From Verrucomicrobiota bacterium (lineage in GTDB: Bacteria; Verrucomicrobiota; Verrucomicrobiia; Limisphaerales; Palsa-1400): a stretch of 64,000 bases of DNA. The notes below the pieces were generated by a model. It was given only the letters and a program-made list of their open reading frames with translations, was not told where the DNA came from and ran no database searches. The stretch's first letter is position 1. Every line of letters begins with the position of its first letter. Shown here piece by piece: positions 4,001 through 34,534 of the stretch. Position numbers and translations under genes: made by a program. The DNA lies in contig JBEKVM010000001.1 of NCBI GenBank assembly GCA_049513975.1, positions 7,836-71,835 on the forward strand, given 5' to 3'.

Positions 4001-4039
4001 CCCATCCGTCCTTCGAGAAGCCTGCCCTGCCGAAAACAG

Positions 4040-14219: not shown

Positions 14220-15170
14220 TCACGCCCTGGGATGGGCCTGGTCGTAAGCGCGCTTGAGGCGTTCGGTGGTCAGGTGGGTATAGACCTGCGTCGTCACCAG
14301 GTGCGCGTGGCCGAGCAACTCCTGCACGCTGCGCAAATCGGCCCCGGCATCGAGCAGGTGCGTGGCGAAGCTGTGGCGCAATTTGTGCGGCGTGATTTTT
14401 GGGTCCAGCCCGGCGGCGCGGAGATATATTTTCAAGCGCAACTGCACCGTGCGCGGCGTGAGCGGCGACACTTTATGCGGGCGGGCGAGGAAAACCGGCA
14501 TGGCGCCGGCGGGGTCATAACCCCGGTGTTTCCAATAGGCGCGAATGGCTTCCAGCGCCGGAGCGCCGATGGGCGCAAGCCGTTCCTTTTTTCCCTTGCC
14601 GCGCACGCGCACCAACTGGCCGGGCCAGTCCACATCCTCCGCGCGAAGCTGGCACAACTCGCTCACGCGCAGGCCGCACGAGTAAATCACCTCCAAAATG
14701 GCGGCGTCGCGGAAATACGTGCTCGCCTCCGCCTTCTTTTTCGCTTCCGCTTCGCGCTGCAATTCCTGGCCGGGTGCCCGCAGCAGCTCTTCCAGTTGCG
14801 GCACGGTCAAAAAGCGCGGCAGCCGTTTTTCCCGGGCGGGAAGCGAGAGCTTGCGGATGGGCGAAACGGCGGCGGCGCCATTGCGGATGAGAAACTTGTA
14901 AAAGGAACGCAGCGCGGAGAAGCGGAGTTGCACGGCGGCGCGGCTCAACTGGCCGCGGCCGAGGAAGCGGAGAAAATCCCGGAAATCATCCCGGCCCAGC
15001 GCGTTCCAATCCGGCGGCGCGCGCCGCTGCTGCAGGAACCAGCCGGTGAATTCCAGCAGCGCCTGCCGGTAATTCCTTTCCGTATAAACCGAGGCCCCTT
15101 TTTCGGCGAGAAGATGGCGCAGGAATTTCGAAATCCAAGGATCCATTTTTGGCTCTGGCGGCTCGTTCAT
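14220..15170 (-). CDS. xerC: Tyrosine site-specific recombinase, XerC/XerD type
   Basis: 316 aa. N-terminal SAM-like core-binding domain (YRQALLEFTGWF) and C-terminal R...HKLRHSFATHLL...LGHAHLVTTQVYTH catalytic motifs. No IntI-specific extra segment seen. Confidence 0.8.
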   Translation of the reverse strand: MNEPPEPKMDPWISKFLRHLLAEKGASVYTERNYRQALLEFTGWFLQQRRAPPDWNALGRDDFRDFLRFLGRGQLSRAAVQLRFSALRSFYKFLIRNGAAAVSPIRKLSLPAREKRLPRFLTVPQLEELLRAPGQELQREAEAKKKAEASTYFRDAAILEVIYSCGLRVSELCQLRAEDVDWPGQLVRVRGKGKKERLAPIGAPALEAIRAYWKHRGYDPAGAMPVFLARPHKVSPLTPRTVQLRLKIYLRAAGLDPKITPHKLRHSFATHLLDAGADLRSVQELLGHAHLVTTQVYTHLTTERLKRAYDQAHPRA

Positions 15171-18154: not shown

Positions 18155-19630
18155 TCACGGCTGCGGGGCGGGCGGCGCGTAATAGTCAATCATTCTTTGC
18201 AAGGCCCATTTGCAAACGGCGCAAAACTGGTCGTTTGGCCGCATGGCGTTCATGATGCAGTTTTCCTGCGAGCGATACATGCCGGTTTTCAGATACCCCG
18301 CGCCCTCGAAGGCGCCGACGCGGTCGGGCAAGGCGGCGATTTTGGCCTGGATCTCAGCCTGGCGCGCCTTGACGCCGGCGTCCAGGGCCTGGAGCTGGGC
18401 GTCGCTCATGCCGTTGGTAAGATTGCGCAATTCCTGCCGCAGCGCGGTGATCGCCGTCCGGGCGGGCGGGGTGGGCAGGGCGACTCCGGGGGTGAGGAGC
18501 GCTTTCCATTTGATGTTGGCGGGGTCGAGCATTTCGGTGATGTTCGGATCATTGGGTTCGACGCCTTTGGGGTACATGTCATTGTAGGAGACGTTGCCCT
18601 GGTATTCGTCGGCGAGGAAGGCAAAGGCGTGGCCGAGTTCATGGATGAAGACCAACTGGCTGCGCTGGTTGTCCACGGAAGTGATGCAATAATCCAGGCA
18701 GATGCTGCCGCCGCCGTAGCGCGTCGTATTGACAAGAACGATGATGGTGTCGTAAGGCACCTGGGCGGCCATGCGGTGCATGGCAAAGCTGTCCTGCACC
18801 AGCAGGTAACGGTCTTCCTCGAAGGAATTGTAGGAGGCGTTGAGGCTGGTGTTTTTGTAACGGCGCTGCAGCGGTTCGTCCATGCCCCGCTCCGGCGAAG
18901 CGCGGAAAACGGCGTTGATGTTGAATCTGTCCTTGTTGGTCTTGTAAGGCTCCATGCTGAAGAGGAAGGCGGTCATGCGCTCGGCGTCCTTTTTGAATTT
19001 GTCCTTGTCCTCCGCGGTGTAGCCCTCGGCCAAAAAAACGAAGTCCACCTTGTCGTGCGGATCGCCGGTTTTCTGGATTTCAAACACGGTGTCGCCCATG
19101 TTCACATTTTCGCGGATGATATGATAATCATTGGGATCCACCGTGGTGATGTAAAGGGGAACGGGCACATTGAACTTGTCGCGGCGTTCCACCACCACCA
19201 GCACCGGTTTTTTCGGACAAGGAAAGCGCAAGACCGTCTCGTAGGCGCGCTTGACGCCGTCCAGGGCGGGCTGGGTGGTTTTGTATTCGGCGAACAGGGG
19301 ATTGAAGCCGCGGGAATAAATGAGGCGGTTGGAGTTCCTGTCATAGACCTTCAGGCAATAATGCCCTATTTCAAAGGGCTGGATGAGCGAGCGCGGATTC
19401 TCCGGCCAGACCGGCTCCTGATAAATGGCGTGTTCGGTGATGATTTCATTGGTGGCGTCGCCGATCTCGTAAATCTCCAGGCGCAAGGCGGCGTTGGTAA
19501 AGTAATCGTCGAACACCACGGGGGCCGGTTGGGCCGCCACCCGGACGGCCAGACCGCAAAGCAGGGCCAGGACAACCAGCAGGGACGTTGTGGCGCCGGG
19601 AATCCGGCGGTTTGGGATGTTTTTCATCAT
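18155..19630 (-). CDS. Peptidase M64 (IgA peptidase-like) family protein
   Basis: FIHELGHAFAFLADEY zinc motif. Signal peptide MMKNIPNRRIPGATTSLLVVLALLCGLAV. Confidence 0.8.
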   Translation of the reverse strand: MMKNIPNRRIPGATTSLLVVLALLCGLAVRVAAQPAPVVFDDYFTNAALRLEIYEIGDATNEIITEHAIYQEPVWPENPRSLIQPFEIGHYCLKVYDRNSNRLIYSRGFNPLFAEYKTTQPALDGVKRAYETVLRFPCPKKPVLVVVERRDKFNVPVPLYITTVDPNDYHIIRENVNMGDTVFEIQKTGDPHDKVDFVFLAEGYTAEDKDKFKKDAERMTAFLFSMEPYKTNKDRFNINAVFRASPERGMDEPLQRRYKNTSLNASYNSFEEDRYLLVQDSFAMHRMAAQVPYDTIIVLVNTTRYGGGSICLDYCITSVDNQRSQLVFIHELGHAFAFLADEYQGNVSYNDMYPKGVEPNDPNITEMLDPANIKWKALLTPGVALPTPPARTAITALRQELRNLTNGMSDAQLQALDAGVKARQAEIQAKIAALPDRVGAFEGAGYLKTGMYRSQENCIMNAMRPNDQFCAVCKWALQRMIDYYAPPAPQP

Positions 19631-19772
19631 AAAACTCAGTTCACAGGCCAGGGCCACGGCCAGGGCCGGCGCCCTGCCGCGGGCAAGTTCATCCGGTTAC
19701 AAAAGCAGACTTGCCGCCCCCCGTCGAGATTTTTCCCGCGGCCCAAATTTTCGCCCGGGGCCGATTCAAAAT
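19542..19772. repeat. Segment A: M64 gene 5' end plus upstream region, duplicated at 21601-21825
   Basis: Aligned by eye over about 225 bp, with a few substitutions and one short indel. Confidence 0.85.
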
Positions 19773-19925: not shown

Positions 19926-20050
19926 AAAATCAACAATGGGATTTTTTAACAGGAGGGCGCAGAGGAAGCAGAGGTTTTCTTTTTTCGTTCTCCGTTTTCT
20001 CCGTTCTCTCCTGTTCCAAATTCCTGCGTTCAAGCTCCGCGTTGGTTTTT
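19926..20050 (+). repeat. Mosaic-leader sub-module Q (partial P end plus Q) joined directly to H1
   Basis: aaaatcaacaatgggattttttaacaggagggcgcagaggaagcagaggttttcttttttcgttctccgttttctccgttctctcctgttccaaattcctgcgttcaagctccgcgttgg matches 23120-23235 and 25335-25450. Confidence 0.8.
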
Positions 20051-20052
20051 GA

Positions 20053-20135
20053 GGCTCCACCTTAACTTTGCCCAATTTGGATTTGAATCATGGCCGTCTT
20101 TGAGCAGCATGGGAGAAAGTTATAGTTTGAGTCCT
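20053..20135 (+). repeat. H1: ~84-bp imperfect-palindrome element
   Basis: Core cttaactttgcccaatttggatttgaatcatggccgtctttgagcagcatgggagaaagttatag. The outer arms are not self-complementary. Confidence 0.85.
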
Positions 20136-20165: not shown

Positions 20166-20699
20166 TCATTTGTTAAGTCTCTCTTTGAAGAACAGCCGAG
20201 TTGTTTTTACTGGATGTTGAAGGAACAGTATCTTCCACGGATACACTTTTCTATCAGGATCAACACCGATACTCAACAGCCATTGCCGCCGAAACTCCAA
20301 TTGCTCCTTAAGAGAGCAAGGGTCAACATCCTGACCTGAGTCAAATATTGACACCAAATCCTTCATATCGCCCTTCTTTCCAAGATAACATCTATATGCC
20401 ATTTCGCCATTTCCCATGCTTGCACCCATTCCTGATGATGACACATTTCTACTATTACCATAGCACCGCAATAATTGACTTTCCTTTTCCAACTCACTGC
20501 GGATATAATTTAATGCAACTAAATAACTGGTGGCGGCACGGGAAATCTCGCGATTCGCGAATCGTAATGTTATCTGCACGAGCTTGGTATCGTCCGGGCT
20601 TTGGCCCCACAGCAGTAATGTGCCTCCCGTAATTGACTTGTCAGACATCAAGATATCAACGGGTTTCGCAATCGGCTCAGTAATAGTTTGAGATTTCAT
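20166..20699 (-). CDS. Hypothetical protein, low-GC orphan, antisense to the array
   Basis: 177 aa from the ATG at 20699 (the track's 180-aa version uses a TTG start). Two hand-counted 60-nt lines are 37% and 42% GC. No family recognised. Confidence 0.55.
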   Translation of the reverse strand: MKSQTITEPIAKPVDILMSDKSITGGTLLLWGQSPDDTKLVQITLRFANREISRAATSYLVALNYIRSELEKESQLLRCYGNSRNVSSSGMGASMGNGEMAYRCYLGKKGDMKDLVSIFDSGQDVDPCSLKEQLEFRRQWLLSIGVDPDRKVYPWKILFLQHPVKTTRLFFKERLNK

Positions 20700-20778
20700 A
20701 CCAATCAAGTTATTTCTTGCAAGTAGGAGCTGCTGATGCTGTTGTGCTTCCAGATGTTCCGATGCAAACGTTCAAAGC

Positions 20779-20860
20779 GGTCAGACCATAACTGTGCCCA
20801 ATTTGGACTTGAATCATGGCCGTCATTGAGCACGATCGGACAAAGTTATAGTTTGATCCC
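20779..20860 (+). repeat. H2: imperfect-palindrome element
   Basis: ggtcagaccataactgtgcccaatttggacttgaatcatggccgtcattgagcacgatcggacaaagttatagtttgatcc. Confidence 0.85.
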
Positions 20861-20920
20861 TTCGACGTCGCATCCACTTTTTAAGCGTGATTATGAGGCA
20901 TTTTTACCGCCATTCGCCGC

Positions 20921-21184
20921 CGCAAGCAAGGTTTTTCGCATCCATCAAATGGGTCAAACTATCGGGCGTGTTGCCCAAATCGAAAGCTGGAGAAAAGCGT
21001 TGCCGGACGGGTCCGATGTCTGCATGAATTTGTGAACAGAAGCAGGTTTGGATAATGCTGCGACCGAGGACGGTCGCACTCCGCGAACACAGGCACCTCG
21101 CTGTCCGCTCGCCGGCCTAATCGGCCAAAATCAACAAACGGATATTTTAACAGGAGGGCGCAGAGGAAACAGAGGTTTTCTTTC
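20921..21184 (+). repeat. Mosaic-leader sub-modules S-tail plus P (third copy)
   Basis: cgcaagcaaggtttttcgcatccatcaaa...ttgcccaaatcgaaagctggagaaaagcgttgccggacgggtccgatgtctgcatgaatttgtgaacag...ataatgctgcgaccgaggacggtcgcactccg aligns with 22921-23170 and 25165-25380. Confidence 0.85.
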
Positions 21185-21442: not shown

Positions 21443-21514
21443 CTGTTTTCTTTTCTCGTTCTCCGTTCTCTCCCGTTCAAGATTCCTGCGTTGGAACTCC
21501 GCGTTAGATTTTCA
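21443..21514 (+). repeat. Mosaic-leader sub-module Q joined directly to H3
   Basis: gttttcttttctcgttctccgttctctcccgttcaagattcctgcgttggaactccgcgttagatttt. Confidence 0.8.
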
Positions 21515-21594
21515 GGGTCACCCTTAACTTTGCCCAAATTGGACTTGAATCATGGCCGTCTTTGAGCAGGATGGGACAAAATTATGGGTGACCC
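21515..21594 (+). repeat. H3: imperfect-palindrome element
   Basis: gggtcacccttaactttgcccaaattggacttgaatcatggccgtctttgagcaggatgggacaaaattatgggtgaccc. The arms are self-complementary. Confidence 0.85.
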
Positions 21595-21600
21595 GTTTGA

Positions 21601-21825
21601 CGGACGGCCAGACCGCAAAGCAGGGCCAGGACAACCAGCAGGGACGTTGTGGCGCCGGGAATCCGGCGGTTTGGGATGCTTTTTATCATAAAACTCAGTT
21701 CACAGGGCATTGCCGGGGCCGGCGCCCTCCCGCGGGCAAGTTCATCCGGTTACAAAAGCAGACTTGCCGGCCCCCGTCGAGATTTTTCACGCGGGCCAAA
21801 TTCTCGCCCGGGGCCGATTCAAAAG
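21601..21825. repeat. Segment A': duplicate of the M64 5' end/upstream region, with an orphan 34-codon signal-peptide remnant on the minus strand
   Basis: Minus-strand ATG at about 21690 gives MIKSIPNRRIPGATTSLLVVLALLCGLAVRQTGHP*, which terminates at the H3 boundary. Confidence 0.85.
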
Positions 21826-22705: not shown

Positions 22706-22725
22706 CCGTCAAAGGGCTCATCAAA

Positions 22726-22808
22726 GGCGTCAAACCGTAACTTTTCCCAATTTGGACTTGAATCATGGCCGTCTTTGAGCAGGATGGGACAAAGTTAAGG
22801 GGGACCCC
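22726..22808 (+). repeat. H4: imperfect-palindrome element, 20 nt after the stop of the Ig-like gene
   Basis: ggcgtcaaaccgtaacttttcccaatttggacttgaatcatggccgtctttgagcaggatgggacaaagttaagggggacccc. Its right outer arm matches the reverse complement of the H3 left arm (13/14) rather than its own left arm. Confidence 0.85.
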
Positions 22809-23368
22809 TTCAACAGCGAGACGGAGCCGTTGCGGTTTGAAGCGCTTGAAACCAAGACTGACCGGCGAGGGCGCCGGTCAGCACACGCGAGGGCGCGTAT
22901 GCTCCCCGCGCATTCCCCTTCGCAAGCAAAGTTTTTCGCATCCATCAAACTATAGGGCGTGCTGCCCGAATCGAAAGCTGGAGAAAAGCATTGCCGGACG
23001 GGTCCGATGTCTGCAGGAATTTGTGAACAGAAGCAGGTCTGGATAATGCTGCGACCGAGGACGGTCGCACTCCGCGAACACAGGCACTTCGCTGTCCGCT
23101 CCCCGGCTTAATCGGCCAAAATCAACAAACGGATTTTTAACAGGAGCGCGCAGAGGAAACAAAGGTTTTCTTTTTTCGTTCTCCGTTTTCTCCGTTGTCT
23201 CCTGTTCAAAATTCCTGCGTTAAAGCTCCGCGTTGGATTTAATTGGCAAGAGCTACTGATTGAGCCGTTCGAGGAAAAAGGACTTGCAAACCTGTGGAGA
23301 AGGAGGAGAATCACGAAAAAGGCCCACCCTGGTCGTGGGCAAGAATCCAAATGGGAAATGTCAAAAAA
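22809..23368 (+). repeat. Mosaic non-coding leader S-P-Q-R, copy 1 (~560 bp)
   Basis: Collinear and over 90% identical by eye with 25089-25585, apart from an 85-bp segment missing in copy 2. Confidence 0.85.
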
Positions 23369-23401
23369 TGCTTCACCACCATCGCAGGAGGGCGCCGCCA
23401 A

Positions 23402-24721
23402 ATGACGCTTCGGAAATTATCGAGTTGTTGTTTCATTGGTGTAGCGGGGATGATTTTCGCCAATGTGGGATTGGCCGATGAATTGCAAAGTGCGTCCCGT
23501 CCGATCGTTTTAAAGGCCGCCCACATTTTCGATTCTGTCTCCGGAAAATTGGAGGAGCCGGGCGTCGTCGTCGTCGCGGGCACAAAAATCCAGGCTGTCG
23601 GCAGCGGCGCCAAGATTCCCGGCGAGGCGAAGGTGATTGACCTCGGCGATGCCACATTGATGCCCGGTTTTATTGATGCCCACGTTCATCTGTCGTTCGA
23701 GATGAGCGACAAATGGTATGAAGATTGGTACGCGGGGATGATGCGCTTTCCTGCCGAGCAGGCGCTGTACGGCGCGCACTATGCCAAGGTCACCCTCGAG
23801 GCGGGTATAACTACGGTCCGCGATCTCGGCTCGGATGACTATGTATCGCTGGGACTGAGAAACGCGATCAAAGCCGGCATGATCCCGGGTCCGCGGATGC
23901 TGGTGGCGAATTACGCGATCGGAGCGACCGGTGGCCACGCCGACCAGGACCCCGTGCCGCCGCACCGGCTCGCCCCGGCAGGTCCCATCCAAGGAGTGTG
24001 TAACGGCCCCGATGAATGCCGGGCTGCCGTGCGCTACCAGATGAAATATGGCGCTGACGTCATTAAATTCATGCCTTCGGGTGGAGTTCTTTCCCTTTCC
24101 GATCCCGTGGACACACCCGAACTTACCCAGGAGGAAATGAACGCAATCGTGTCCGAAGCCCATGCCTGGAAACGCAAAGTGGCCGCCCACTGCCACGGCG
24201 ATCTGGCGGCCAAAATGGCCATTGCCGCCGGTGTGGACTCCATCGAGCACGGCACCTTCCTGCAGGATGACACGCTGCGGGAAATGAAGAACAAGCATGT
24301 GTACTTGGTTCCTACGCTCTTCGCTCTTTATTGGGTGGGCCAGAAGGCCGACACTTACCCGCCGGTCATCGCTGAAAAGGCTCGAGCAGCATCCGCGCAG
24401 AGCCAGAAGATGTTTCAGCACGCGGTCGAAATTGGGGTTCCGATTGCGATGGGCACGGATGCCGCGGTCGAGCCGCACGGCATGAACGCACGGGAGTTTT
24501 CGCTGATGACGGCTAACGGGCTGGAGCCAGCTCAGGCGCTGCTGGCGGGCACGGCGAAAGGCGCCGACTTGCTTGGCATCTCTGATCAAACAGGAACTCT
24601 ACAGCCAGGGAAGTATGCCGACATCGTGGCTGTTGCCGGCAATCCTCTTCTCAACATCAAAACCACGGAGCATCCGATACTGGTAATGAAGGAAGGGGTC
24701 ATCTACATGGGCAGCAAGTAA
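23402..24721 (+). CDS. Exported amidohydrolase-superfamily metallo-hydrolase
   Basis: Signal MTLRKLSSCCFIGVAGMIFANVGLA. LMPGFIDAHVHL metal-binding motif, AHCHG, and GTDA near the C-terminus. An alternative in-frame start lies at 23351. Confidence 0.85.
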   Translation: MTLRKLSSCCFIGVAGMIFANVGLADELQSASRPIVLKAAHIFDSVSGKLEEPGVVVVAGTKIQAVGSGAKIPGEAKVIDLGDATLMPGFIDAHVHLSFEMSDKWYEDWYAGMMRFPAEQALYGAHYAKVTLEAGITTVRDLGSDDYVSLGLRNAIKAGMIPGPRMLVANYAIGATGGHADQDPVPPHRLAPAGPIQGVCNGPDECRAAVRYQMKYGADVIKFMPSGGVLSLSDPVDTPELTQEEMNAIVSEAHAWKRKVAAHCHGDLAAKMAIAAGVDSIEHGTFLQDDTLREMKNKHVYLVPTLFALYWVGQKADTYPPVIAEKARAASAQSQKMFQHAVEIGVPIAMGTDAAVEPHGMNAREFSLMTANGLEPAQALLAGTAKGADLLGISDQTGTLQPGKYADIVAVAGNPLLNIKTTEHPILVMKEGVIYMGSK

Positions 24722-24743
24722 CTGCCCGAGGGGATCTATCAAA

Positions 24744-24825
24744 GGGTTCAAACCATAACTTTGCCCAAATTGGACTTGAATCATGGCCGTCTTTGAGGAG
24801 GATGGGACGATGCTGTTTTTTGACC
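24744..24825 (+). repeat. H5: imperfect-palindrome element with a degenerate right arm, 22 nt after the amidohydrolase stop
   Basis: gggttcaaaccataactttgcccaaattggacttgaatcatggccgtctttgaggaggatgggacgatgctgttttttgacc. Confidence 0.8.
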
Positions 24826-24859
24826 GCCTTGCCTGCAAGGCCAGGCGTCGGTCATGGAT

Positions 24860-24950
24860 GGTAGGGCGCGCAGTCCTCTGCGCGCCGCACGACGGTAGTG
24901 CGACGTTGATTCCAAAGTCCGACGGCGGGCAGCGGAGTGCCCGCCCTACC
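24860..24950. repeat. REP-like element (family B, long form)
   Basis: ggtagggcgcgcagtcctctgcgcgccgc...gggcagcggagtgcccgccctacc. Confidence 0.8.
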
Positions 24951-25004
24951 TTTCCCCGCCCACTCATTTTTGTTGAATTTTGGGCGGTGTCTTAATTGGT
25001 CCAA

Positions 25005-25088
25005 GTGGTCAAACCATAACTTTGCCCAAATTGGACTTGAATCATGGCCGTCTTTGAGGAGGATGGGACACAGTTATCGGTTGACCCC
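25005..25088 (+). repeat. H6: imperfect-palindrome element
   Basis: gtggtcaaaccataactttgcccaaattggacttgaatcatggccgtctttgaggaggatgggacacagttatcggttgacccc. Confidence 0.85.
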
Positions 25089-25585
25089 CTTCAGGAGCCC
25101 CCGCCGACCACACAGCGAGATGGAGCCGTTGCGGTTTGAAGCGCTTGAAACCAAGACTGACCGGCGAGGGCGTGCTGCCCGAATCGAAAGCTGGAGAAAA
25201 GCATTGCCGGACGGGTCCGATGTCTGCATGAGTTTGTGAACAGAAGCAGGTTTGGATAATGCTGCGACCGAGGACGGTCGCACTCCGCGAACACAGGCAC
25301 TTCGCTGTCCGCTCGCCGGCCTAATCGGCCAAAATCAGCAAACGGATTTTTAACAGGAGCGCGCAGAGGAAACAGAGGTTTTCTTTTTTCGTTCTCCGTT
25401 TTCTCCGTTGTCTCCTGTTCAATATTCCTGCGTTAAAGCTCCGCGTTGGATTTAATTGGCAAGAGCTACTGATTGAGCCGTTCGAGGAAAAAGGACTTGC
25501 AAATCTGTGGAGCAGGAAGAAAATCACGAAAAAGGCCCACGCAGTTCGCGGGCGAGAATCAAACTGGGAAATCCCAGAAAAACCT
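25089..25585 (+). repeat. Mosaic non-coding leader S'-P-Q-R, copy 2 (~500 bp)
   Basis: Same order of sub-modules as copy 1. Ends exactly at the ATG of the FG-GAP gene. Confidence 0.85.
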
Positions 25586-27766
25586 ATGTCACACAAACTT
25601 TTCGAGGCGCTCTTGGCCCTGGCGGTGGGACTATTGATTTCGGTCAGCACGTTTCGCGCCGCCGCTCAGGCGCCCTTCACCAACCAGCCGGTCCCCGCGT
25701 TTCTCCAAGTGCCCGTTGCGTTCGGGAGCGCGGCGTGGGGTGATTACGACAACGATGGCAGGCTCGACTTGCTTCTTATCGGCACGACGAATGTGGCCGT
25801 CCCGGTCGGACAGCTTGAGTATGGGTTGGTGCAGTTGTGGCACAACGATGGCAACGGCCAGTTCCATTTGGTCTCCATCCCCGCGCCCGGAGTGCTGGCA
25901 GGCACGGTGGCGTGGGTGGATTACGACAACGACGGATACCTGGATTTCATGATAGCGGGTGAGCCTGACGATGGCTCTTCGCCCGTGGTCCTGTTGTACC
26001 ACAATCAACACGATGGCACATTCACGAATGTGCCGATTCCGGGCCTGGTTTCCTCCATATTGACCGGCCAGTACTGGGGAACACCGTTGTTTTCGTGGGG
26101 GGATTATGATCACGACGGGCGGCCGGACCTTGCGATTATATCTTCCAGTACCAACTCGTATCCCGGGCTCGTGCAGGTGTGGCATAACGATGGCGGCGGC
26201 GCTTTTTCCCAGGTTCCGCTATCATTGACAATCCCAAACGGCTCGACCGTGCAATGGGCAGACATGGATGGCGACGGCTGGATTGACCTGGTTGTTGCCG
26301 GCGCCAGCACGAATGGCGGAAGCGTGTTTCCAGTGGAGATATTCCACAACAATTTCACCAACAATGCCTACCCGCTATTCACGCCGGTGACGTCAATTCT
26401 TCTTGGCCCAAACGCTTCGGCTGCCAAGACATTCAGTCTGGCCATTGCGGACTACAATAACGACGGGCTTCTGGATCTGGTGGCGGGGATTGGTCTCCAG
26501 TCCGGCGGCAACGCCAGCGCGAGTCTCGAATTCAACGTTGGCGCCAACCAATATACCAACAACGGAACGATGATCCCCGGCTCTTTAGGCAAGGTTTTTT
26601 TTGCGGTTGGCGATTACGACAATGATGGGCTTCCTGACCTCGCGGAAATGGACTTCAGTTCCGGCGGTTTCGCAGGATTACTGCTCAATAACGGTGACGA
26701 CAGCTTCAGCACGAACGGGCTTGCGGGTCTGCCGGCAGGGAGCGACCCATTCGTGACTTTTGCAGATTACGACAATGACGGGCGGTTGGACCTGTTTACC
26801 ATGTCAGGCGCCAGTCCACTGCAGCTTTGGCACAATCAGACGCCAGTGACCAACACGCCGCCAACGGCGCCGACCGGGCTGTATGCGATTCCGTTCACGA
26901 ATGGCGCGCAGCTTTCGTGGAATCCGGCCACGGACGCGCAGACGCCTTCTCCAGGGCTGAGCTACAACTTGCGCGTTGGCACTGTTCCCGGCACGGACAA
27001 TTACATCGCAGCCGAGGCGGACCTGTCCACCGGCTGGCGGCGCGTCGTGCAACGGGGAGCGATCCAGGGGACGAACTACGAGCTGACGCAGATGCCACCC
27101 GGAATTTATTACTGGAGCGTGCAAGCGATGGATGCCGCTTTCGCCGGCGGAGCTTTTGCGGCGGAAGGCACGTTCGCCATTCCTGGACTTGCGATCACGC
27201 CGGCCTACAGCGATAACATCACCGCCACTTCAGCGGTCCTGTATTGCTCTGTCAGCAGCGGAGGGACGACCGCGACCGGGTATTTCCAGTGGGGCTTGAC
27301 CACTTCTTACGGGAACACGACGGCGGCACAGTCGCTGGGATCGAGCATCGGCACGGCGCCGTTTCATCAGGGCATTACCGGATTGCAACCGGCGACCTAT
27401 TATCACTTCCGGGGGGTTGTTACCAACGGCGCGACGAGCGTTTATAGTCCTGATACCGTTCTTTACACGGACCCTACGATACTCATTGGCGATTTGACCG
27501 GGAGCGGGCAAATTAGCGGCAGCGAAGCCGGAATGGTGCTGTCGAATTACTTTGTTTCCAGCGGCCTTGTGCTGACAAACCCCGCGTCGCTGGGCGGCGG
27601 AAACTTCCAGTTTGGCCTTGGCGCGATATCGGGGTGGAGCTTCAACGTGCAGGCCAGTTCGGATCTGACGACGTGGAGCAACCTGCCAACGAGCGCGACG
27701 CCGTTCTACGAGTTTTTCGACCCGGAGGCAACCAATTCGCCGTACCGCTTTTATCGGGTGCGCTGA
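25586..27766 (+). CDS. Exported FG-GAP/VCBS repeat protein with FN3-like domains
   Basis: Signal peptide. At least 7 Ca-binding FG-GAP motifs (WGDYDNDGRLDLL, WVDYDNDGYLDF, WGDYDHDGRPDLA, WADMDGDGWIDLV, IADYNNDGLLDLV, VGDYDNDGLPDLA, FADYDNDGRLDLF). C-terminus ...SPYRFYRVR. Confidence 0.85.
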   Translation: MSHKLFEALLALAVGLLISVSTFRAAAQAPFTNQPVPAFLQVPVAFGSAAWGDYDNDGRLDLLLIGTTNVAVPVGQLEYGLVQLWHNDGNGQFHLVSIPAPGVLAGTVAWVDYDNDGYLDFMIAGEPDDGSSPVVLLYHNQHDGTFTNVPIPGLVSSILTGQYWGTPLFSWGDYDHDGRPDLAIISSSTNSYPGLVQVWHNDGGGAFSQVPLSLTIPNGSTVQWADMDGDGWIDLVVAGASTNGGSVFPVEIFHNNFTNNAYPLFTPVTSILLGPNASAAKTFSLAIADYNNDGLLDLVAGIGLQSGGNASASLEFNVGANQYTNNGTMIPGSLGKVFFAVGDYDNDGLPDLAEMDFSSGGFAGLLLNNGDDSFSTNGLAGLPAGSDPFVTFADYDNDGRLDLFTMSGASPLQLWHNQTPVTNTPPTAPTGLYAIPFTNGAQLSWNPATDAQTPSPGLSYNLRVGTVPGTDNYIAAEADLSTGWRRVVQRGAIQGTNYELTQMPPGIYYWSVQAMDAAFAGGAFAAEGTFAIPGLAITPAYSDNITATSAVLYCSVSSGGTTATGYFQWGLTTSYGNTTAAQSLGSSIGTAPFHQGITGLQPATYYHFRGVVTNGATSVYSPDTVLYTDPTILIGDLTGSGQISGSEAGMVLSNYFVSSGLVLTNPASLGGGNFQFGLGAISGWSFNVQASSDLTTWSNLPTSATPFYEFFDPEATNSPYRFYRVR

Positions 27767-27864
27767 GTGCAGCAGGAGTGGCGCGGCGCGAGGACTTGGA
27801 GAGTTTGTCAGCAATTGTTGGCCAGTCGCAATGCCGTTGAATATTTCGAACTGAGTTCGTCAAC

Positions 27865-27948
27865 GGGGTCAAACTAAAACTTTGCCCAAATTGGACTTGA
27901 ATCATGGCCGTCTTTGAGGAGGATGGGAAAAAGTTATGGTTTGACCCC
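27865..27948 (+). repeat. H7: imperfect-palindrome element
   Basis: ggggtcaaactaaaactttgcccaaattggacttgaatcatggccgtctttgaggaggatgggaaaaagttatggtttgacccc. Confidence 0.85.
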
Positions 27949-27966
27949 TACGATGACCCCTACGAC

Positions 27967-28062
27967 GAGGAAAATGGACTTGCAAGTCTGTGGAGAAGGA
28001 GGAGAATCGCGAAAAAGGCCCACCGTGGCCGTGGGCAAGAATCGAAATGGGAAATGTCAAAT
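27967..28062 (+). repeat. Leader sub-module R, copy 3 (R only)
   Basis: cgaggaaaatggacttgcaagtctgtggagaaggaggagaatcgcgaaaaaggcccaccgtggccgtgggcaagaatcgaaatgggaaatgtcaaa. Confidence 0.85.
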
Positions 28063-28069: not shown

Positions 28070-29302
28070 TTGCGGCAAAAAATCTTAACGACTTTGGCTG
28101 TCGTGCTGGTCGCAGGGCTTGTCGCGGGCATTATTGCGTCGCGGCGGGCTTCCCCAACATTGCCGGCTCCTCTCCTCCTGCCCATGAGCCTGGGCAGGAG
28201 CAATGCGGCGTTGGCGGTTTATCCCGGTGCCACTGGGGCCATGTTTGTCTTGCCCGATGGATCGCTGTGGCAGTGGGGAACCGGCGTTAAACATCCGGAT
28301 GGACTTCCAGAACTTTTCGACGATCGGCATCGTTGGGCCAAAGCCTTCAACCGGTCAGGTGGCTGGCTGGCGCAGGAGACTAATGGCAATGTTTGGGAGC
28401 TGCGGCCAGGCCCAAGGCATTTGGTTCCCTTGTCCGTCACAAATCAGGATTGGGTCGAATTGACCGGAGGGGTGATGTACACTTTAGGGCTGCAAAGGGA
28501 CGGAACCATTCTGGGTTGGGAGTTGAATTCTGGCCCGGCGGGCAAAACTAATGCGATCACCGAAGTGGCAACGAATTTCCTTTGGCGCGGCATTTCCGCG
28601 TCTGGACCATTTTGCATTGGCGTGTCGAGCGATGGAATGCTTTGGACTTGGGAACGCCGGGGATTGTCTCCTTTGACCTTTACACAGCCGCTGCAGGCGA
28701 CATCGAATACCAATTGGATCGGCGTGGCTGGCGGACAATATGCGTGGTCCAGTTCGGGCGAATTGTGGGGAGCACCCGTTGCCCGCCTCAATTCTCCAAA
28801 AGCGATTCAGGGACGCTTTGCCTTGGGATCCATTGTGCATGAGATTCGTTCTGACGGCAGTCTTTGGGCGATCGGAGCGCCAGGGCCGCCCACGTCCCGG
28901 CCAATGGCCGGCGGAGGCATTTCCACTTCGTTTGGCGTTTCTGGCAGGTCGGTATCTGGCTCTCGTGCTGCTCTGAATGGGCGTGGCCCAGCGCCTGGTT
29001 TTGGCAAATTTCAATGGCGGAGGGTAGGAGAACGGTCGGACTGGGTTTCGATCTGGGGCTCGGACGGAACCTATTATGGCCTGACTTCCGATAGCACGGT
29101 TTGGGTTTGGGGAGCCGATTGGGGGCAGAAGCCAATTCAAACATCGCAGGACACGCTTGCCCACGCATGGGATGAGATTCGCGATCATATTCAAGCTTCG
29201 CCGGGCGGAGCCGGGCCAATGGCGGGACGAGCAATGATGCTGACTCAGCCATATCAAGACGCACCTCGCCCGTTAATGCGCTTCAAGCCAGTCAGCAAGT
29301 GA
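28070..29302 (+). CDS. Membrane-anchored RCC1-like beta-propeller repeat protein
   Basis: Repeats DGSLWQWG, DGTILGWE, DGMLWTWE, SGELWGAP, DGSLWAIG, DSTVWVWG. The start is uncertain. TTG at 28070 gives (M)RQKILTTLAVVLVAGLVAGIIASRR; ATG at 28184 is the alternative. The track start at 27914 reads through the non-coding R and H7. Confidence 0.65.
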   Translation: MRQKILTTLAVVLVAGLVAGIIASRRASPTLPAPLLLPMSLGRSNAALAVYPGATGAMFVLPDGSLWQWGTGVKHPDGLPELFDDRHRWAKAFNRSGGWLAQETNGNVWELRPGPRHLVPLSVTNQDWVELTGGVMYTLGLQRDGTILGWELNSGPAGKTNAITEVATNFLWRGISASGPFCIGVSSDGMLWTWERRGLSPLTFTQPLQATSNTNWIGVAGGQYAWSSSGELWGAPVARLNSPKAIQGRFALGSIVHEIRSDGSLWAIGAPGPPTSRPMAGGGISTSFGVSGRSVSGSRAALNGRGPAPGFGKFQWRRVGERSDWVSIWGSDGTYYGLTSDSTVWVWGADWGQKPIQTSQDTLAHAWDEIRDHIQASPGGAGPMAGRAMMLTQPYQDAPRPLMRFKPVSK

Positions 29303-29304
29303 GC

Positions 29305-29431
29305 GTTAACAGCCCGTTAAAAAAGGCCCGGTGAGGCACCGGGCCTACAACAGATGCACGCTTTGCGAGGGAAATGTAGGCCGCGTGCCCTCACGCGGCG
29401 GGAGTGGAGCCTTTTTTTGACGGGCTGTTAA
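29305..29431. repeat. 22-bp inverted repeats bracketing a terminator-like stem and a REP
   Basis: gttaacagcccgttaaaaaagg / cctttttttgacgggctgttaa. Inner perfect stem ggcccggtg-agg-caccgggcc at 29325-29345. Confidence 0.75.
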
Positions 29432-29436
29432 AGTCA

Positions 29437-29520
29437 AAGGGGTCACCATGACTTTGCCCAAATAGGACTGGAATCATGGCCGTCTTTGAGCCGGATGGGA
29501 CAAAGCTATAGTTTGACTTT
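29437..29520 (+). repeat. H8: imperfect-palindrome element, most diverged
   Basis: aaggggtcaccatgactttgcccaaataggactggaatcatggccgtctttgagccggatgggacaaagctatagtttgacttt. Confidence 0.8.
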
Positions 29521-30655: not shown

Positions 30656-30785
30656 CTCCTCCGCCGACCACACAGCCCGATGGAGCCGTTGCGGTTTGAA
30701 GCGCTTGAGACCAAGACTGACCGGCGAGGGCGCCGGTCAGCACACGCGAGGGCGCGTATGCTCCCCGCGCATTCCCCTTCGCAAG
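30656..30785 (+). repeat. Leader sub-module S, terminal copy upstream of the DUF4175-like gene
   Basis: ctcctccgccgaccacacagcccgatggagccgttgcggtttgaagcgcttgagaccaagactgaccggcgagggcgccggtcagcacacgcgagggcgcgtatgctccccgcgcattccccttcgcaag aligns with 22815-22925 and 25095-25165. Confidence 0.85.
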
Positions 30786-30884
30786 AACAGTGTCGAGCTG
30801 CGCCAAATGCCGGTTTTTGTTGAATTTTGCAACTTGAACGTTGGGGTTTACCGTCTAACCTAATGTGTGCGCCGCGCACGCGTC

Positions 30885-33800
30885 ATGCCGCAAAACGACA
30901 ATTATACGCTGGTGGATTTGCCCGAGGGCTTGCGCCGGCAGTTTGAAAAAGCCGGGCAACGCCTCTGGCGCGTGGAAACCACGACGGCGGTGTGCGGGGT
31001 CGCGGCCAGCCTCCTCTTTTCCGTGCTGGCCGTTTTTATGTCCGACCGGCTTTGGGCAACCCCGGTCTGGCTGCGGGTCTTTATTTTCCTGTGCGGCCTG
31101 GGCGGCGCCACGGCGGCCATCCTGGCCTGGGCGCGCCATTGGGTTTGGCGCCGGCGCGACATGCGGGCGCTGGCCACTTTGGTGCAAAAGAAATACCGGC
31201 GCCTGGGCGACCGGCTGCTGGGCATCGTGGAGCTGGCCAACGAACAGCAGCATTTGCCTAATTTTTCCCCCGCCCTCTATCACGCCGCCATCGCCCAAGT
31301 GGCGGAGGAGGCCCGAAAATTCGATTTCCAGCAAAGCGTCAATGTGCGCCCCGCCAAAAACATGGGTTGGACGGCGGCGGGCTTGTCGCTCCTGTTGCTC
31401 GCCTCCTCCCTGGCGCTGCCGCAGGCCAGTTGGAACGCCTTTTTGCGCTGGATCGAGCCGGGCGCAAACGTGCCGCGCTACACCCTGGTCGTGCTGGACG
31501 GATTTGCGCAGAAGCTGATCGTGCCGCACGGGGAGCCTTTTGAGGTTTCCGGCACGGTTCGCTACCTCTCCTTTTGGAAGCCGTCCCAAGTTTTTGCCTG
31601 GTTCGGGCGGCAGCCCAAAACCCAATCCACCGTCCGGTCGGGCACGGTCCGCCTACAGATTGCGGGACAGGTGGAGAATGGCGTTTTGAAGGTGCGGGTG
31701 GGCGACGCCCTGGCGGAGGTGACCATCCTGCCCAACCACCGCCCTTCCTTGCAGCAACTTGCCGCCTCGATTCACTTGCCCGATTATTTGCGCTATCCCG
31801 ACCTGTCCGAGGCGGTGCAGAGCGGGACGTTTCGGGCGCTGGAGGGCAGCCGCGTCGGTTTTGTCGGCACGGTCAGCCGTCCGCTGGCGGCGGCCTCGAT
31901 GCAAGGCGGCGGCCGGAGTCTGGCGGCGCTGAAAGTGCAAGGCCCGACTTTTTCCAGCCCGCCCGCCGAAACGGAGGGAGCTGGCGAACTGGTTTTCAAT
32001 TGGCGCGACCAACTGGGTCTGACCAATGCGGCGCCCTGGCGGCTTTCCTTGCAGCGGCAAAGCGACCAGCCGCCGCAGGCCGACCTTCCCGACCTGCCGC
32101 GGGCCACGGCCATGCTGGCGACGGACGTGATGCATATTCGCGCCCAGGCCCAGGATGATTTCGGCGTGCGCGATCTGGGTTTGATCTGGGGGGTTGATTC
32201 CGATGGCGGGCAGACGGACCCGATGTCAACGGAGATCAAGGCCGAAATATCTTCCGCCCAGGAGAAGAGGGTGGAGGAGGTTTTTCTGTGGAGTCCCGCC
32301 CTCTATCGCATCCCGGCGGACTCGACCGTGGAATTGCAGGGGTTTGCCCGCGATTATTTTCCCAAACGGGAGCGCGCCCGCACCGCCTCTTATTTCATCC
32401 GTGTTCTCAGCCCGGAAGCGCACGCCGAAATGTTGCGCCAGAACCTGGAGGCCCTCATGGCCCAGATCGAGGACATTACCCGGCTGCAGGAAAAAATCGT
32501 GTCGGACACCACCGATGTCAAAGAATCCGCCAAGGACCTGCCCGGCGCGCAACAATCTGCCCGCCTCACCCAGAGCCATGAAGAGCAACTGCAAAACGCC
32601 CGGCGGCTGGACGAATTGAGCCGCCAGGGCGAAAACACCGTGCGCGAAGCCATGAAGAATTCGCTGATTCCCGAGGACACCATCCGCCAGTGGAGCCAGA
32701 CGTTGCAACAGTGGGAGAAGTTGTCCGGGGAGAAAATGCCGGAGGCCGCCCGCGCCATGCAGGCCGCCGCGCAAGATGCCAAGGCCGGGGCACAGTCGCA
32801 AAGCACCCCGTCGCAACCGCAGAATTCCCAGTCGCAGCAGCAAAATGCCAAGGCACAGGAGGAGGATGCCAAGCGGCTGGAGCAGGAGCTGGCTGACGCC
32901 GAGAAACGCGCCGAGGAAGTGCTGGAGGCACTTCGGAAGATGGAGCAAAACGCCAACCAAAACCTCGATAAGTTGCAGGCCCTCACCCTGGCCCAACGCT
33001 TGCGCCGGGTCGGCGACGAGGAACAAGGTTTGGGCGGGCAGTTGACCACCAACCTGGCCGACACCATCGGCCTGCCCCCCCAGGAATTGCCGGAAAAATT
33101 CAAGCGGCTCAACACCAGCTACGTCAAGCGCCAGGGCGGCGCCCATGACGAATCGGCCGCCTTGCAGGCTGAAATCAGCCGCTTTTTTGAGCGCACCCAA
33201 AAACCCAATTACGGCAAGGTCAGCCAGGACATGAAGGATTCCCACGCCTCGGACGAGTTGGACCGGATGGGCGGACTGATCCAAAGCAACATCACCATCC
33301 AAACCTCGCTGGACCTGACCAACTGGTCCGGACGTTTTCAGAAATGGGCCGAAGACCTCGAACCCAAAGAGCAAGCCGGCCAGGGCGGCGGCGGTCAAGG
33401 CCCGCCCCCGCTGGATCTGACCAAGCAGTTGATCGCCCTGCTGCGCCTCCGGGAAAGGCAATCCACCCTGCGCGACCAGACCGGCGTGCTGGAATGGAGC
33501 AAAGAGACCACGCCCGATTACAAGGAGCAGGCCGCAGCCCTCGCCACCACCCAGGGAAACTTGGGCCAGGCCCTGGACCTCATTCACCAGGCCACCCCCG
33601 TCCCGGCCTTTGACCCGCCCTTCCATCAGGTCGGCACCGCCATGGAGGAGGCCCAGGCGCTTCTGGCCAAACCTCAGACCGACGCAGTTACCGACGGCAC
33701 CGAGGCCAGGTCCGTGGATGCGCTTTCCGATTTGATCAACCTCATCAATGAAGCCGGCCAACGCGGCCAGCAGCAACAGCAGGAACAGGCCGGCGACGCC

Positions 33801-34079
33801 AGCGCCGAAGAAATGGCCTTTCTGACCCGCATGATGCGCAGTGGCAACCCGAACGGTCCTCCAGGCATGCAACCGCCGGGGCCGGGCGGCTCCGGCCGCG
33901 GCAACCTCTCCGGCGGAACCACCGACCAGAACGGCCGCCCCATGGGCGGCGACGCGTCAGGCCGGGGCGCGGCCGGGCGCAACGTCATCAAAGCGGAGGG
34001 CGTCATCCAGAATGCCCCCGTCGAGTTCCGCGACGCCCTGGAGAACTACTTTCACAACATCGAAAAACCAAACCCCTGA
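30885..34079 (+). CDS. Large membrane protein with Q-rich coiled-coil region (DUF4175-like)
   Basis: Two N-terminal TM helices, Ig-like middle with a DDFGV motif, a low-complexity QSQ/AQ-rich helical region, and C-terminal PVEFRDALENYF. Start is ATG 30885 or GTG 30867. Family call is from memory of the architecture only. Confidence 0.6.
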   Translation: MPQNDNYTLVDLPEGLRRQFEKAGQRLWRVETTTAVCGVAASLLFSVLAVFMSDRLWATPVWLRVFIFLCGLGGATAAILAWARHWVWRRRDMRALATLVQKKYRRLGDRLLGIVELANEQQHLPNFSPALYHAAIAQVAEEARKFDFQQSVNVRPAKNMGWTAAGLSLLLLASSLALPQASWNAFLRWIEPGANVPRYTLVVLDGFAQKLIVPHGEPFEVSGTVRYLSFWKPSQVFAWFGRQPKTQSTVRSGTVRLQIAGQVENGVLKVRVGDALAEVTILPNHRPSLQQLAASIHLPDYLRYPDLSEAVQSGTFRALEGSRVGFVGTVSRPLAAASMQGGGRSLAALKVQGPTFSSPPAETEGAGELVFNWRDQLGLTNAAPWRLSLQRQSDQPPQADLPDLPRATAMLATDVMHIRAQAQDDFGVRDLGLIWGVDSDGGQTDPMSTEIKAEISSAQEKRVEEVFLWSPALYRIPADSTVELQGFARDYFPKRERARTASYFIRVLSPEAHAEMLRQNLEALMAQIEDITRLQEKIVSDTTDVKESAKDLPGAQQSARLTQSHEEQLQNARRLDELSRQGENTVREAMKNSLIPEDTIRQWSQTLQQWEKLSGEKMPEAARAMQAAAQDAKAGAQSQSTPSQPQNSQSQQQNAKAQEEDAKRLEQELADAEKRAEEVLEALRKMEQNANQNLDKLQALTLAQRLRRVGDEEQGLGGQLTTNLADTIGLPPQELPEKFKRLNTSYVKRQGGAHDESAALQAEISRFFERTQKPNYGKVSQDMKDSHASDELDRMGGLIQSNITIQTSLDLTNWSGRFQKWAEDLEPKEQAGQGGGGQGPPPLDLTKQLIALLRLRERQSTLRDQTGVLEWSKETTPDYKEQAAALATTQGNLGQALDLIHQATPVPAFDPPFHQVGTAMEEAQALLAKPQTDAVTDGTEARSVDALSDLINLINEAGQRGQQQQQEQAGDASAEEMAFLTRMMRSGNPNGPPGMQPPGPGGSGRGNLSGGTTDQNGRPMGGDASGRGAAGRNVIKAEGVIQNAPVEFRDALENYFHNIEKPNP

Positions 34080-34081: not shown

Positions 34082-34131
34082 GGGAGCACACGCGCCCCCG
34101 CGTGTCGCGGGCCGCGCCTCGCGGCCCGCAT
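34082..34131. repeat. REP-like double hairpin (family C) between convergent genes
   Basis: gggagcacacgcgcccccgcgtgtcgcgggccgcgcctcgcggcccgcat. Confidence 0.8.
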
Positions 34132-34150: not shown

Positions 34151-34534
34151 CTACATCGCCCCGTCTGCGAAATCACTTCCCGCGGCGGCGGCCGGCTTTG
34201 CCGCCTGACATTTCTTCTCCGACTTCAAACGGCGCAAGATCGCCTCGGCAGTAAAGTGTTCCAGCCATAACCGCTCGCGCGTGGCGGTGGCCCATTCGTT
34301 TGGCTCGTTGCCATAAACCAGGTCAATGTCGCGGATGCTTTGCAGACTCTCCTCCATGTCGTCCCTCAACCGCCGCTCCGCATCCGGCAGGTCGCGCATC
34401 GCCGCCACGGAACGCTCCACAAACCCCGCGTCCACCAGACCCGGCCTCGCCCAATCCCCGGCTGGAATGTGAAACGGACCGCGCGGCGGCGGCAAGGTGA
34501 ATTCCAGTTGTGCCGCATTTTTCATGTTTTCCAA
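34151..34534 (-). CDS. Hypothetical 127-aa protein, translationally coupled to the upstream RM enzyme gene
   Basis: Its start overlaps the methyltransferase gene stop by 13 nt. No recognisable motif. Confidence 0.5.
   Translation of the reverse strand: MENMKNAAQLEFTLPPPRGPFHIPAGDWARPGLVDAGFVERSVAAMRDLPDAERRLRDDMEESLQSIRDIDLVYGNEPNEWATATRERLWLEHFTAEAILRRLKSEKKCQAAKPAAAAGSDFADGAM

Follow-up and report, generated by a model that had tools for sequence, protein, structure and literature searches.

Why do genes with unrelated products carry the same DNA directly in front of them? This question is raised by a stretch of 64,000 nt from a Verrucomicrobiota bacterium (GTDB order Limisphaerales, Palsa-1400; assembly GCA_049513975.1, contig JBEKVM010000001.1, positions 7,836 to 71,835 of the forward strand), called the window below. 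Within it, a module of about 90 nt, named R, stands before an amidohydrolase gene, an FG-GAP repeat protein gene and a gene for a membrane-anchored protein. Before the first two genes, R is the last part of a longer non-coding leader made of further repeats (S, P and Q), which itself begins behind a repeat named H. A first-pass annotation made from the sequence had proposed that R is either a shared promoter with a structured 5' untranslated region (UTR) or a portable promoter cassette travelling with H. Comparison with metagenome contigs gives a different origin: R comes from an insertion sequence (IS) of the IS1380 family, whose right end closes with these ~90 nt, right inverted repeat included. 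The copies in the window are orphan ends of this element, and they probably supply outward promoters to the adjoining genes, an arrangement of the type called promoter fixation.

The relatives of R were collected by scanning a metagenome collection with a 20-base pattern that covers the spacer and the bases before the hairpin of R, leaving the -35 box, the -10 box, the hairpin and the 3' end free. The scan yielded 100 stretches, of which ~90 are distinct, chiefly from peat and bog samples; as the copies come from metagenome contigs, some may be one locus in different strains. Conservation of R stops sharply ~70 nt past the start of the search pattern, at the tip of the IS, and in a subset of copies the homology among R loci reaches 1.6 kb upstream. 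A related metagenome contig, L065, contains a complete element of ~1665 bp with a single open reading frame (ORF) of 456 amino acids. Its order is a left inverted repeat, a DDE transposase gene and a non-coding 3' tail of about 215-230 nt that ends in R. The left end reads CCCGGATTTCTCAGATTC... (inverted repeat CCCGGATTTCCC...), and the tail ends in ...GAATCCAAATGGGAAATCCCG (inverted repeat ...CCAAATGGGAAAT-NN-CA). The left repeat, CCCGGATTTC(C/T)C..., matches the reverse complement of the R tip, C(G/T)GGGATTTCCCA..., and the left ends begin at one common position in four contigs (L053, L060, L102 and L104). The transposase ORF (L065:560-1930, minus strand) scores 381 bits against NCBIfam NF033539 transpos_IS1380 (cutoff 180) and reaches 1e-128 with Pfam PF13701. 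It shares 25% identity with the ISEcp1 transposase (tblastn, E = 7e-20) and 66% with an unannotated transposase-like sequence on a Microvirga plasmid record.

Internal-deletion derivatives that retain both ends form a minority of the copies (L102, L038/L105, L053, L104 and L029). At one of these loci, represented by the two contigs L038 and L105, a perfect 6-bp duplication, GTTTAC, surrounds the left repeat and the R tip; the flanks of the IS are AT-rich (TTNAA-like). Because R is continuous with the transposase gene, its tip matches the left repeat and, at that one locus, a duplication flanks the pair, R is an end of the IS and not a target into which the IS inserts. The parent IS is common in a group of peat-dwelling Verrucomicrobiae.

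How much of this element is left in the window? All three copies of R correspond to positions 182-272 of a 274-position model of the IS tail, in which the transposase stop lies near 43, an A-tract at 183-188, TTGCAA at 193-198 and the tip at 272. Against positions 1597-1684/1687 of the L065 element, the identity of the window copies is 88-94% (94% to 1597-1684 for copy 1), and each keeps the A-tract, TTGCAA, the 16-nt spacer, GA(G/A)AAT, the GC-rich hairpin and the inverted repeat. Neither a transposase-like sequence nor the left inverted repeat was found in the 64-kb window. Chance is excluded for both the R and the H repeats, since the R tip motif occurs three times against 0.04 expected and the H core eight times against 0.01. 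An assembly chimera is also an unlikely source of the stubs: the junctions recur in contigs of several independent metagenomes (L001-L003, L019, L036, L037 and L098) and in a metagenome-assembled genome (MAG) of GTDB, so the arrangement of the leaders is real.

The likely start codons of the three downstream genes lie 39, 10 and 11 nt beyond the end of R (Table 1). The genes are thus in three different frames relative to R, and R is not coding, as had been claimed from the start. The long N-terminal extensions in the ORF list, suspected of being artefacts, are indeed open frames running into R. The motif cTTGCAA, 16-nt spacer, GAGAAT and the hairpin GCCCAC-N7-GTGGGC with its loop differing among the three copies were likewise found as described, with GAAAAT in place of GAGAAT in copy 2; the label "RCC1-like" for the third protein found no support in Pfam or NCBIfam. 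An upstream ORF starting from an ATG within R (MGNVK...) was considered and rejected: copy 2 has no such ATG, and in the wider set this ATG heads the chosen downstream ORF in 17 of the ~80 copies with an ORF, where chance would give one-third.

The wider set of copies shows which part of the tail is retained. Of the copies compared with the tail model, 87 reach the tip; in 21 of these the tail is complete, and the other 66 are truncated within it. Their cuts lie at positions 52-159 in 29 copies, at 160-184 in 35 and beyond 184 in only 2, while the search pattern could detect cuts up to position 201; the 5' boundaries of the stubs are taken from the ends of local alignments. In 61 solo copies the -35 box is 97.5% conserved, the highest value among the blocks that the pattern left unconstrained, and the A-tract and the -10 box stand at ~91%. 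The hairpin loop and the region behind the hairpin are conserved at 82-86% in solo copies, compared with 92-93% in long copies. In addition, the dominant downstream open frame lies on the same strand as R in 67 cases and on the opposite strand in 9, compared with 37 and 27 for the upstream control. Gene starts mostly lie about -20 to +110 nt from the position used as the R end, which is itself ~7 nt past the IS tip.

The genes next to R are unrelated to one another. They encode, for example, a pilin-like N-methyl protein, a KaiC-like ATPase, a periplasmic binding protein, a GT2 glycosyltransferase, an aldo-keto reductase, GH1 and GH2 hydrolases, a GFO/IDH/MocA oxidoreductase, a xylose-isomerase-like protein and a C-type lectin. 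The first-pass annotation would have been contradicted by copies lying away from genes, whereas 67 of 76 point at one that begins some 10-120 nt away. Its portable promoter cassette therefore stands as far as portability upstream of unrelated genes and a promoter-like motif are concerned, with the IS origin missed; its regulon of secreted proteins does not stand, the linked genes being functionally unrelated and including cytoplasmic enzymes. The gene behind a stub can also change. At L004, a MAG locus syntenic with the window, R is followed (4786-4880) by the 5' UTR and the first ~30 codons of the amidohydrolase gene (~118 nt) and then by an unrelated gene for a 317-aa secreted protein, so genes behind a retained stub get replaced. 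Furthermore, some contigs hold two or three stubs at short distance: L059 at 671-700 (+) and 2523-2552 (-), L081 at 1840-1869 (+) and 2756-2785 (-), and L041 three of them. In L059 and L081 the stubs are oppositely oriented. Contigs of this kind are places to look for stub-mediated inversions or composite units.

What could the retained end do for its neighbours? As judged from motif and position, the IS tail would carry a complete outward-facing promoter, as in ISEcp1 and ISPme1. In the intact element this promoter probably drives the transposase gene across the circle junction. Where the element lands just upstream of a gene, the same promoter would transcribe that gene, and subsequent deletion could remove most of the element while the promoter-bearing end is kept. 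In the window, transcripts are predicted to start at about 23317-23319, 25530-25532 and 28013-28015 and to read into the amidohydrolase, FG-GAP and third genes, respectively; each would carry a GC-rich stem-loop close to its 5' end. A sigma-54 reading of the same region, based on CTGG-N-TTGCA, was set aside, as the GG and GC elements are 11 nt apart and not the canonical 10.

Several observations weigh against this account. The two hexamers match the Escherichia coli consensus at 8 of 12 positions, which is under the threshold of a generic promoter scan, and none of the three was listed by that scan. Local alignments that stop where IS subfamilies diverge could account for part of the clustering of 5' ends at 160-184. 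All of R is well conserved (82-97%), and the conservation of the hexamers could partly mean that the copies are young and not that they are under selection. All three window stubs start at the identical tail position, preceded by CGAG (CGAG|GAAAA), a junction found also in L004; it may have been homogenised by conversion, which we prefer, or else a stub already truncated may have been copied by some other route. As for the element itself, a clean target duplication is seen at one locus only: L053 has an approximate one (ATTA), L102 and L104 have one mismatch each, and L065 has none.

Could the stubs simply be inert debris? If the right end captured the DNA adjoining it and carried it along in a transposable module, the adjacency of R and a gene would record how the gene arrived and not how it is expressed, and the stubs would persist only because they are young. 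ISEcp1 and ISPme1 are documented to capture 3'-adjacent DNA in this one-ended manner (PMC9330008), and the locus is hypervariable between the window and L004, with GC lower than its surroundings. The high conservation extends over the whole of R without singling out the hexamers, and the hairpin lacks covariation. However, capture alone does not predict the 67:9 co-orientation or tips lying 10-40 nt from gene starts, nor does it predict 5' cuts that end just before the A-tract and the -35 box. It also leaves out that the loop and the post-hairpin region are relaxed in solo copies while the -35 box stays at 97.5%. We consider inert debris an unlikely explanation and prefer the outward promoter.

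A promoter cassette that stands on its own is likewise doubtful: in peat Verrucomicrobiae, the ~90-nt stub would have gone on spreading after the loss of the transposase gene and would have placed dozens of unrelated genes under one IS-derived promoter with a 5' stem-loop leader, a genome-scale domestication and not a set of scattered accidents. The route might be trans-mobilisation, with the right repeat and a surrogate left end, or recombination of repeat-bounded intervals (H...R), and the common break in the window stubs and L004 would then be a trace of copying.

The hairpin allows a further reading. In the wider R family its stem is 7 bp and its loop 5 nt (GCCCACG CTGGT CGTGGGC), and in isolation it folds at -10.8 kcal/mol. 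Among 87 copies no covariation of the 7-bp stem was found beyond that of shuffles (the score was equalled in 96 of 500); pairing is 90.9%, compared with 90.7% in shuffles, 156 of 500 of which do as well, and double changes are seen in only 3 of 606 cells. Single-side changes that keep pairing through G-U wobble number 46 cells on the plus strand and 20 on the minus strand, a bias that lends weak support to a role of the hairpin in the outward transcript. Alternatively, the hairpin might serve mainly as an intrinsic terminator on the minus strand, blocking antisense transcription from outside into the IS and acting, in the stubs, as an insulator at the 5' end of genes. A scan lists all three copies as hairpins followed by a T-run on that strand, for example GCCCACGACCAGGGTGGGC then CTTTTTCGTG, and the motif lies just inside the inverted repeat, a frequent site of such protection in insertion sequences. 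Against this, the stem has only 6-7 bp, pairing survives single-side changes about twice as often on the plus strand, and none of the three window copies has a minus-strand gene running into it. Termination could be a role of the hairpin in the intact IS; as its main role in general it is rather improbable.

If R is the end of an IS, what is the rest of the leader? Module coordinates and identities were obtained from a repeat scan of the window and a pairwise alignment of the two long copies. These are collinear, and from 22831/25113 onward, across S, P, Q, the linker and R as far as the end of TTGCAAA, they are 96-100% identical. The description of two collinear leaders more than 90% identical was thus borne out, except that identity drops to 81% over the final ~75 nt of R, a value shared by the flanking H copies. 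The gap noted in S of copy 2, between two AGGGCG microrepeats, is where it was said to be, and measures 86 bp instead of 85 bp; copy 2 has in addition 18 bases at the 5' end of S that are found also in the solo S at 30656. The scan grouped the repeats into a 300-nt family at 22954/25167 (97%, with a 71% copy at 20963), an S family at 22813 and 30672 (95%), a Q family at 19943, 23134 and 25347 (93%), a 96-nt R family at 23270, 25483 and 27966, and an H family of ~98 nt with eight copies. Sub-modules were also seen on their own, as reported before: S-tail plus P at ~20921-21184, Q at 19943-20049 and 21459-21514, R at 27966-28061 and S at 30672-30791 (95%).

The mosaic is nested mobile-element debris, in which S, P and Q would be remains of small mobile repeats, unrelated to R and lying between H and R. 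Across the 0.55 Mb of R loci, only the contigs of the window locus and one related MAG contain S, P, Q and H. H is absent from all other R loci (~95), and R therefore does not travel with H, contrary to the earlier proposal. A complete P element is present in L005 (1752-1894, ~143 bp), with terminal repeats matching at 18 of 19 positions (TAGGGCGTGTTGCCCAAA) and TA on both flanks; it has inserted into an H copy, in the 3' arm. In the window P is truncated throughout, with only the 5' repeat retained. S contains a perfect palindrome (CTGACCGGCG-AGGG-CGCCGGTCAG) and P a further palindrome (TGCGACCG-AGGA-CGGTCGCA); in one S copy of L004, among the few S copies available, the stem is kept through a double change (CTGACAGGCG/CGCCTGTCAG). 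Both palindromes had been quoted as repetitive extragenic palindromic (REP)-type hairpins. They are present, whereas a concatenate of REP hairpins only does not describe the leader, P being a truncated miniature inverted-repeat transposable element (MITE).

The order of the modules varies, with Q and then S-H-R in L004, H-P-Q in L005 and H-R at window copy 3; the two long copies of the window have lost the H core that separated S from P. Along the long copies, identity runs from 81% in H through 96-100% in S-P-Q, the linker and the 5' part of R to 81% in the 3' part of R. A young tract is here bounded by older repeats (H on the left, the -35 box of R on the right), and the best explanation of the near-identity is that two paralogous H...R intervals recently underwent gene conversion or recombined with each other. 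Such conversion would also homogenise the 5' junction of the stubs.

H is an imperfect palindrome of ~85 nt with an invariant core, GAATCATGGCCGTC, and variable, partly complementary arms. Its eight window copies are confined to 9.5 kb, the rest of the 64 kb having none, and they generally lie just 3' of a plus-strand gene. Such clustering is unusual for a MITE. Among species-representative genomes the core was found in one only, an uncultured Verrucomicrobiae MAG, and a scan of viral contigs for H gave no match. The MAG locus (L004) shares RadC, an M6-like protease and an M64 peptidase with the window but carries other genes, around which H occurs five times. In the middle of H, a stretch of ~40 nt is conserved and unpaired; DNA fold z-scores range from +1.3 to -4.2, a long stem forms in 3 of the 8 copies, and neither a consensus RNA structure nor covariation was found for H. 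The idea that H is itself an IS1380 end that has diverged, so that H...R would be a mini-element with two ends, was rejected as unsupported: after an apparent inverted match of 13 nt, H was locally aligned with the IS tail and left end, and the scores were equalled by 117-415 of 500 shuffles.

Eight co-oriented repeats in 9.5 kb, one after each gene, recall an integron-like cassette array at 20-30 kb, in which H would be attC-like and H-S-P-Q-R would be non-coding DNA inside cassettes. A tyrosine recombinase gene 5 kb away and the syntenic L004 locus with its different genes would fit as well. The recombinase (14220-15170, minus strand), however, is XerC/D-like, with 296 bits to XerC and 116 bits to the integron integrase model TIGR02249 (cutoff 265), and lies three genes away from the array. 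Five of the 8 H copies fold weakly or not at all, with neither a consensus structure nor covariation in support, and the conserved part of H is its unpaired centre, where an attC site has a variable centre and conserved R and L boxes in a mostly paired hairpin. Cassette leaders of 500 nt would also be atypical. With no IntI beside the array and no attC-like folding or covariation, H was rejected as attC, and an integron is very improbable here.

Least credible of all is a host-encoded leader, that is, a shared promoter with a structured, riboswitch-like 5' UTR co-regulating exported proteins: ~90 conserved copies directly 5' of genes and the greater G-U tolerance of the plus strand would suit it, whereas R runs on into a transposase gene and makes up the end of an IS with its inverted repeat, which largely refutes it, the linked genes are functionally unrelated and in part cytoplasmic enzymes, stem covariation is at shuffle level, the three predicted 5' UTRs fold with z-scores of -0.03, -2.15 and -0.80, and Rfam gave no match at gathering thresholds in the 64 kb and none within S-P-Q-R or H at E <= 1.

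Table 1. Features of the R, H and leader modules in the window (positions are those of the 64,000-nt stretch).
Feature	Position	Strand	Remarks
R copy 1	23273-23363	+	Tail-model positions 182-272 (nhmmer against the IS tail model); tip ...GGGAAATGTCA
R copy 2	25486-25577	+	Orphan IS1380-family right-end stub, CCCAG-tip subtype; 81% to copy 1 past the -35 box
R copy 3	27969-28059	+	Orphan IS1380-family right-end stub directly 3' of H7
Putative outward promoter R1	23284-23311	+	-35 TTGCAA 23284-23289, 16-nt spacer, -10 GAGAAT 23306-23311
Putative outward promoter R2	25497-25524	+	TTGCAA, 16-nt spacer, GAAAAT
Putative outward promoter R3	27980-28007	+	TTGCAA, 16-nt spacer, GAGAAT
Subterminal hairpin GCCCAC-N7-GTGGGC	23322-23340 (R1), 25535-25553, 28018-28036	+	Hairpin then T-run on the minus strand
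Amidohydrolase gene	23402-24721	+	Pfam PF01979 1.8e-50; likely start ATG 23402 (MTLRKL..., signal peptide), 38 nt past the R1 tip
FG-GAP repeat protein gene	25586-27766	+	Likely start ATG 25586, 9 nt past the R2 tip
Membrane-anchored protein gene	28070-29302	+	Likely start TTG 28070, 10 nt past the R3 tip; no family match
H copies (eight)	20049-20135, 20772-20862, 21514-21597, 22721-22809 (H4), 24739-24828, 25000-25089, 27860-27949, 29434-29519	+	Repeat scan
S-P-Q-linker copy 1	22810-23272	+	S ~22810-22935, P ~22951-23110, Q ~23111-23245, linker 23246-23272; fills the gap between H4 and R1
S-P-Q-linker copy 2	25090-25485	+	Pairwise alignment with copy 1
Solo S	30656-30785	+	95% in repeat scan; upstream of a 1070-aa gene at 30867-34079
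Q module	19926-20050	+	Adjoins H1; repeat scan
Q 3' half, second	21443-21514	+	Adjoins H3; repeat scan
S-tail + P + Q 5' half	20921-21184	+	H core deleted between S and P
P MITE 5' terminal inverted repeat TAGGGCGTGCTGCCCGAA	22953-22970; also 20962-20979, 25166-25183	+	3' repeat absent from every window copy

The window has other repeats and insertions. Beside H3 lies a duplicate of the start of the M64 peptidase gene, comprising ~38 codons and ~170 nt of upstream sequence (19542-19771 and 21601-21824, 93%); the two copies, 2 kb apart, point to a rearrangement at the edge of the variable region. Between H1 and H2, a 180-aa ORF on the minus strand (20166-20708) lies in a segment of 45% GC, compared with ~60% elsewhere; it has no Pfam or NCBIfam match, and it looks like inserted foreign DNA. 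After the third gene, a near-perfect palindrome of 120 nt (29303-29422) forms terminator-like hairpins on both strands; its sub-threshold Rfam matches at 29319-29373 (SorX, E = 0.0095; anti-hemB, E = 0.24) are probably due to chance. Fifteen tandem repeats of 102 nt (34 codons; 63-76% identity) occupy 1781-3510 within a long ORF (1757-3892 on the plus strand or 1721-3718 on the minus strand). A 76-nt sequence containing TTGCAAATCCC... recurs at 1549-1624 and 4020-4095 (82%), near the 5' ends of the plus-strand ORFs at 1757 and 4074, and may be another reused upstream module, unrelated to R. A GC-rich double palindrome (3951-4000 and 34082-34131, 94% identical) and a CTGCGT-rich 40-mer (5496-5535 and 43776-43815, 90%) suggest further REP-like families in this genome. 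Beyond the variable region, a large minus-strand gene (34522-38049), with N6_Mtase and Type_ISP_C in the precomputed annotation, encodes a Type ISP restriction-modification enzyme.

The shared leader is thus explained as debris of an IS and of a MITE, and neither a new regulatory RNA nor a regulon is needed. If transcription from R is confirmed, the locus and its relatives would be a clear environmental example of large-scale rewiring of expression by insertion sequences, and the R stub would be a candidate strong promoter for the genetics of Verrucomicrobia. The locus also holds a warning for annotation, as the small ORFs called over R and H, like the long N-terminal extensions there, are artefacts. 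To our knowledge, few fixed promoters from IS1380-type ends have been documented outside clinical plasmids.

How do the R stubs compare with known systems? The closest are ISEcp1 and ISPme1, which have strong, complete outward promoters and capture DNA adjoining their 3' end (review PMC9330008). Like ISEcp1, the new IS belongs to the IS1380 family, has one transposase gene and a 3' tail, and shows an outward -35/-10 pair 50-100 nt inside the right repeat. In a plasmid record, the right end of ISEcp1 reads TTGAAA-18-TACAAT, 103 to 74 nt from the tip, with a 3' tail of 207 nt; in the new IS it reads TTGCAA-16-GA(G/A)AAT, 79 to 51 nt from the tip, with a tail of about 215-230 nt. The left ends are similar as well, CCTAGATTCTAC in ISEcp1 and CCCGGATTTCCC in the new IS, and in both the adjoining gene is co-oriented and lies a short distance past the tip. 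An excess of co-oriented intergenic IS1380 insertions has been reported (PMC9208149). In contrast, the new IS is a distant relative from uncultured Verrucomicrobiae of peat metagenomes, whereas ISEcp1 resides on enterobacterial plasmids upstream of blaCTX-M and blaCMY. Its putative promoter has other hexamers and spacing, with a GC-rich hairpin between the -10 box and the inverted repeat, and the linked genes are ordinary metabolic and surface-protein genes instead of resistance genes.

Truncated ISEcp1 is another parallel: a remnant of ~200 bp upstream of blaOXA-232 retains the promoter, for which the term promoter fixation was used (PMC9330008). The window stubs are the same kind of object, with most of the IS gone and the right end, with its putative promoter, left at the gene. 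The R stubs differ in being shorter (~90 nt) and numerous (~66 of 87), with cuts just short of the A-tract and -35 box, and no antibiotic selection explains their retention. The transposable modules (TMos) of ISPme1 in Paracoccus share with the new IS its family; they have a strong outward promoter and mobilise variable lengths of 3'-adjacent DNA. By analogy, such mobilisation is a plausible route by which R-linked genes may have entered the hypervariable locus, although the window has no complete module of left repeat, transposase, right repeat, captured gene, surrogate right repeat and duplication.

In a broader sense, R fits the operational definition of the putative mobile promoters of Matus-Garcia, Nijveen and van Passel (2012), namely sequences of 50-100 nt with >=80% identity upstream of non-homologous genes, ~7% of whose families also matched IS elements (PMC3488235). 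That category names no mechanism, whereas for R the source is an IS1380 right end and a likely mechanism is identified. The Correia elements of Neisseria are promoter-carrying MITEs, short repeats interspersed in 5' regions that can alter the expression of neighbouring genes; both of their terminal inverted repeats are present, and they move as units. The R stubs, in contrast, are one end of an IS with varied 5' breaks, and two-ended derivatives (L102, L038 and L053) are a minority. An outward promoter fixed as the remnant of an IS end is therefore of a known kind, whereas this member of the family, and the abundance of its stubs in an environmental lineage, are new.

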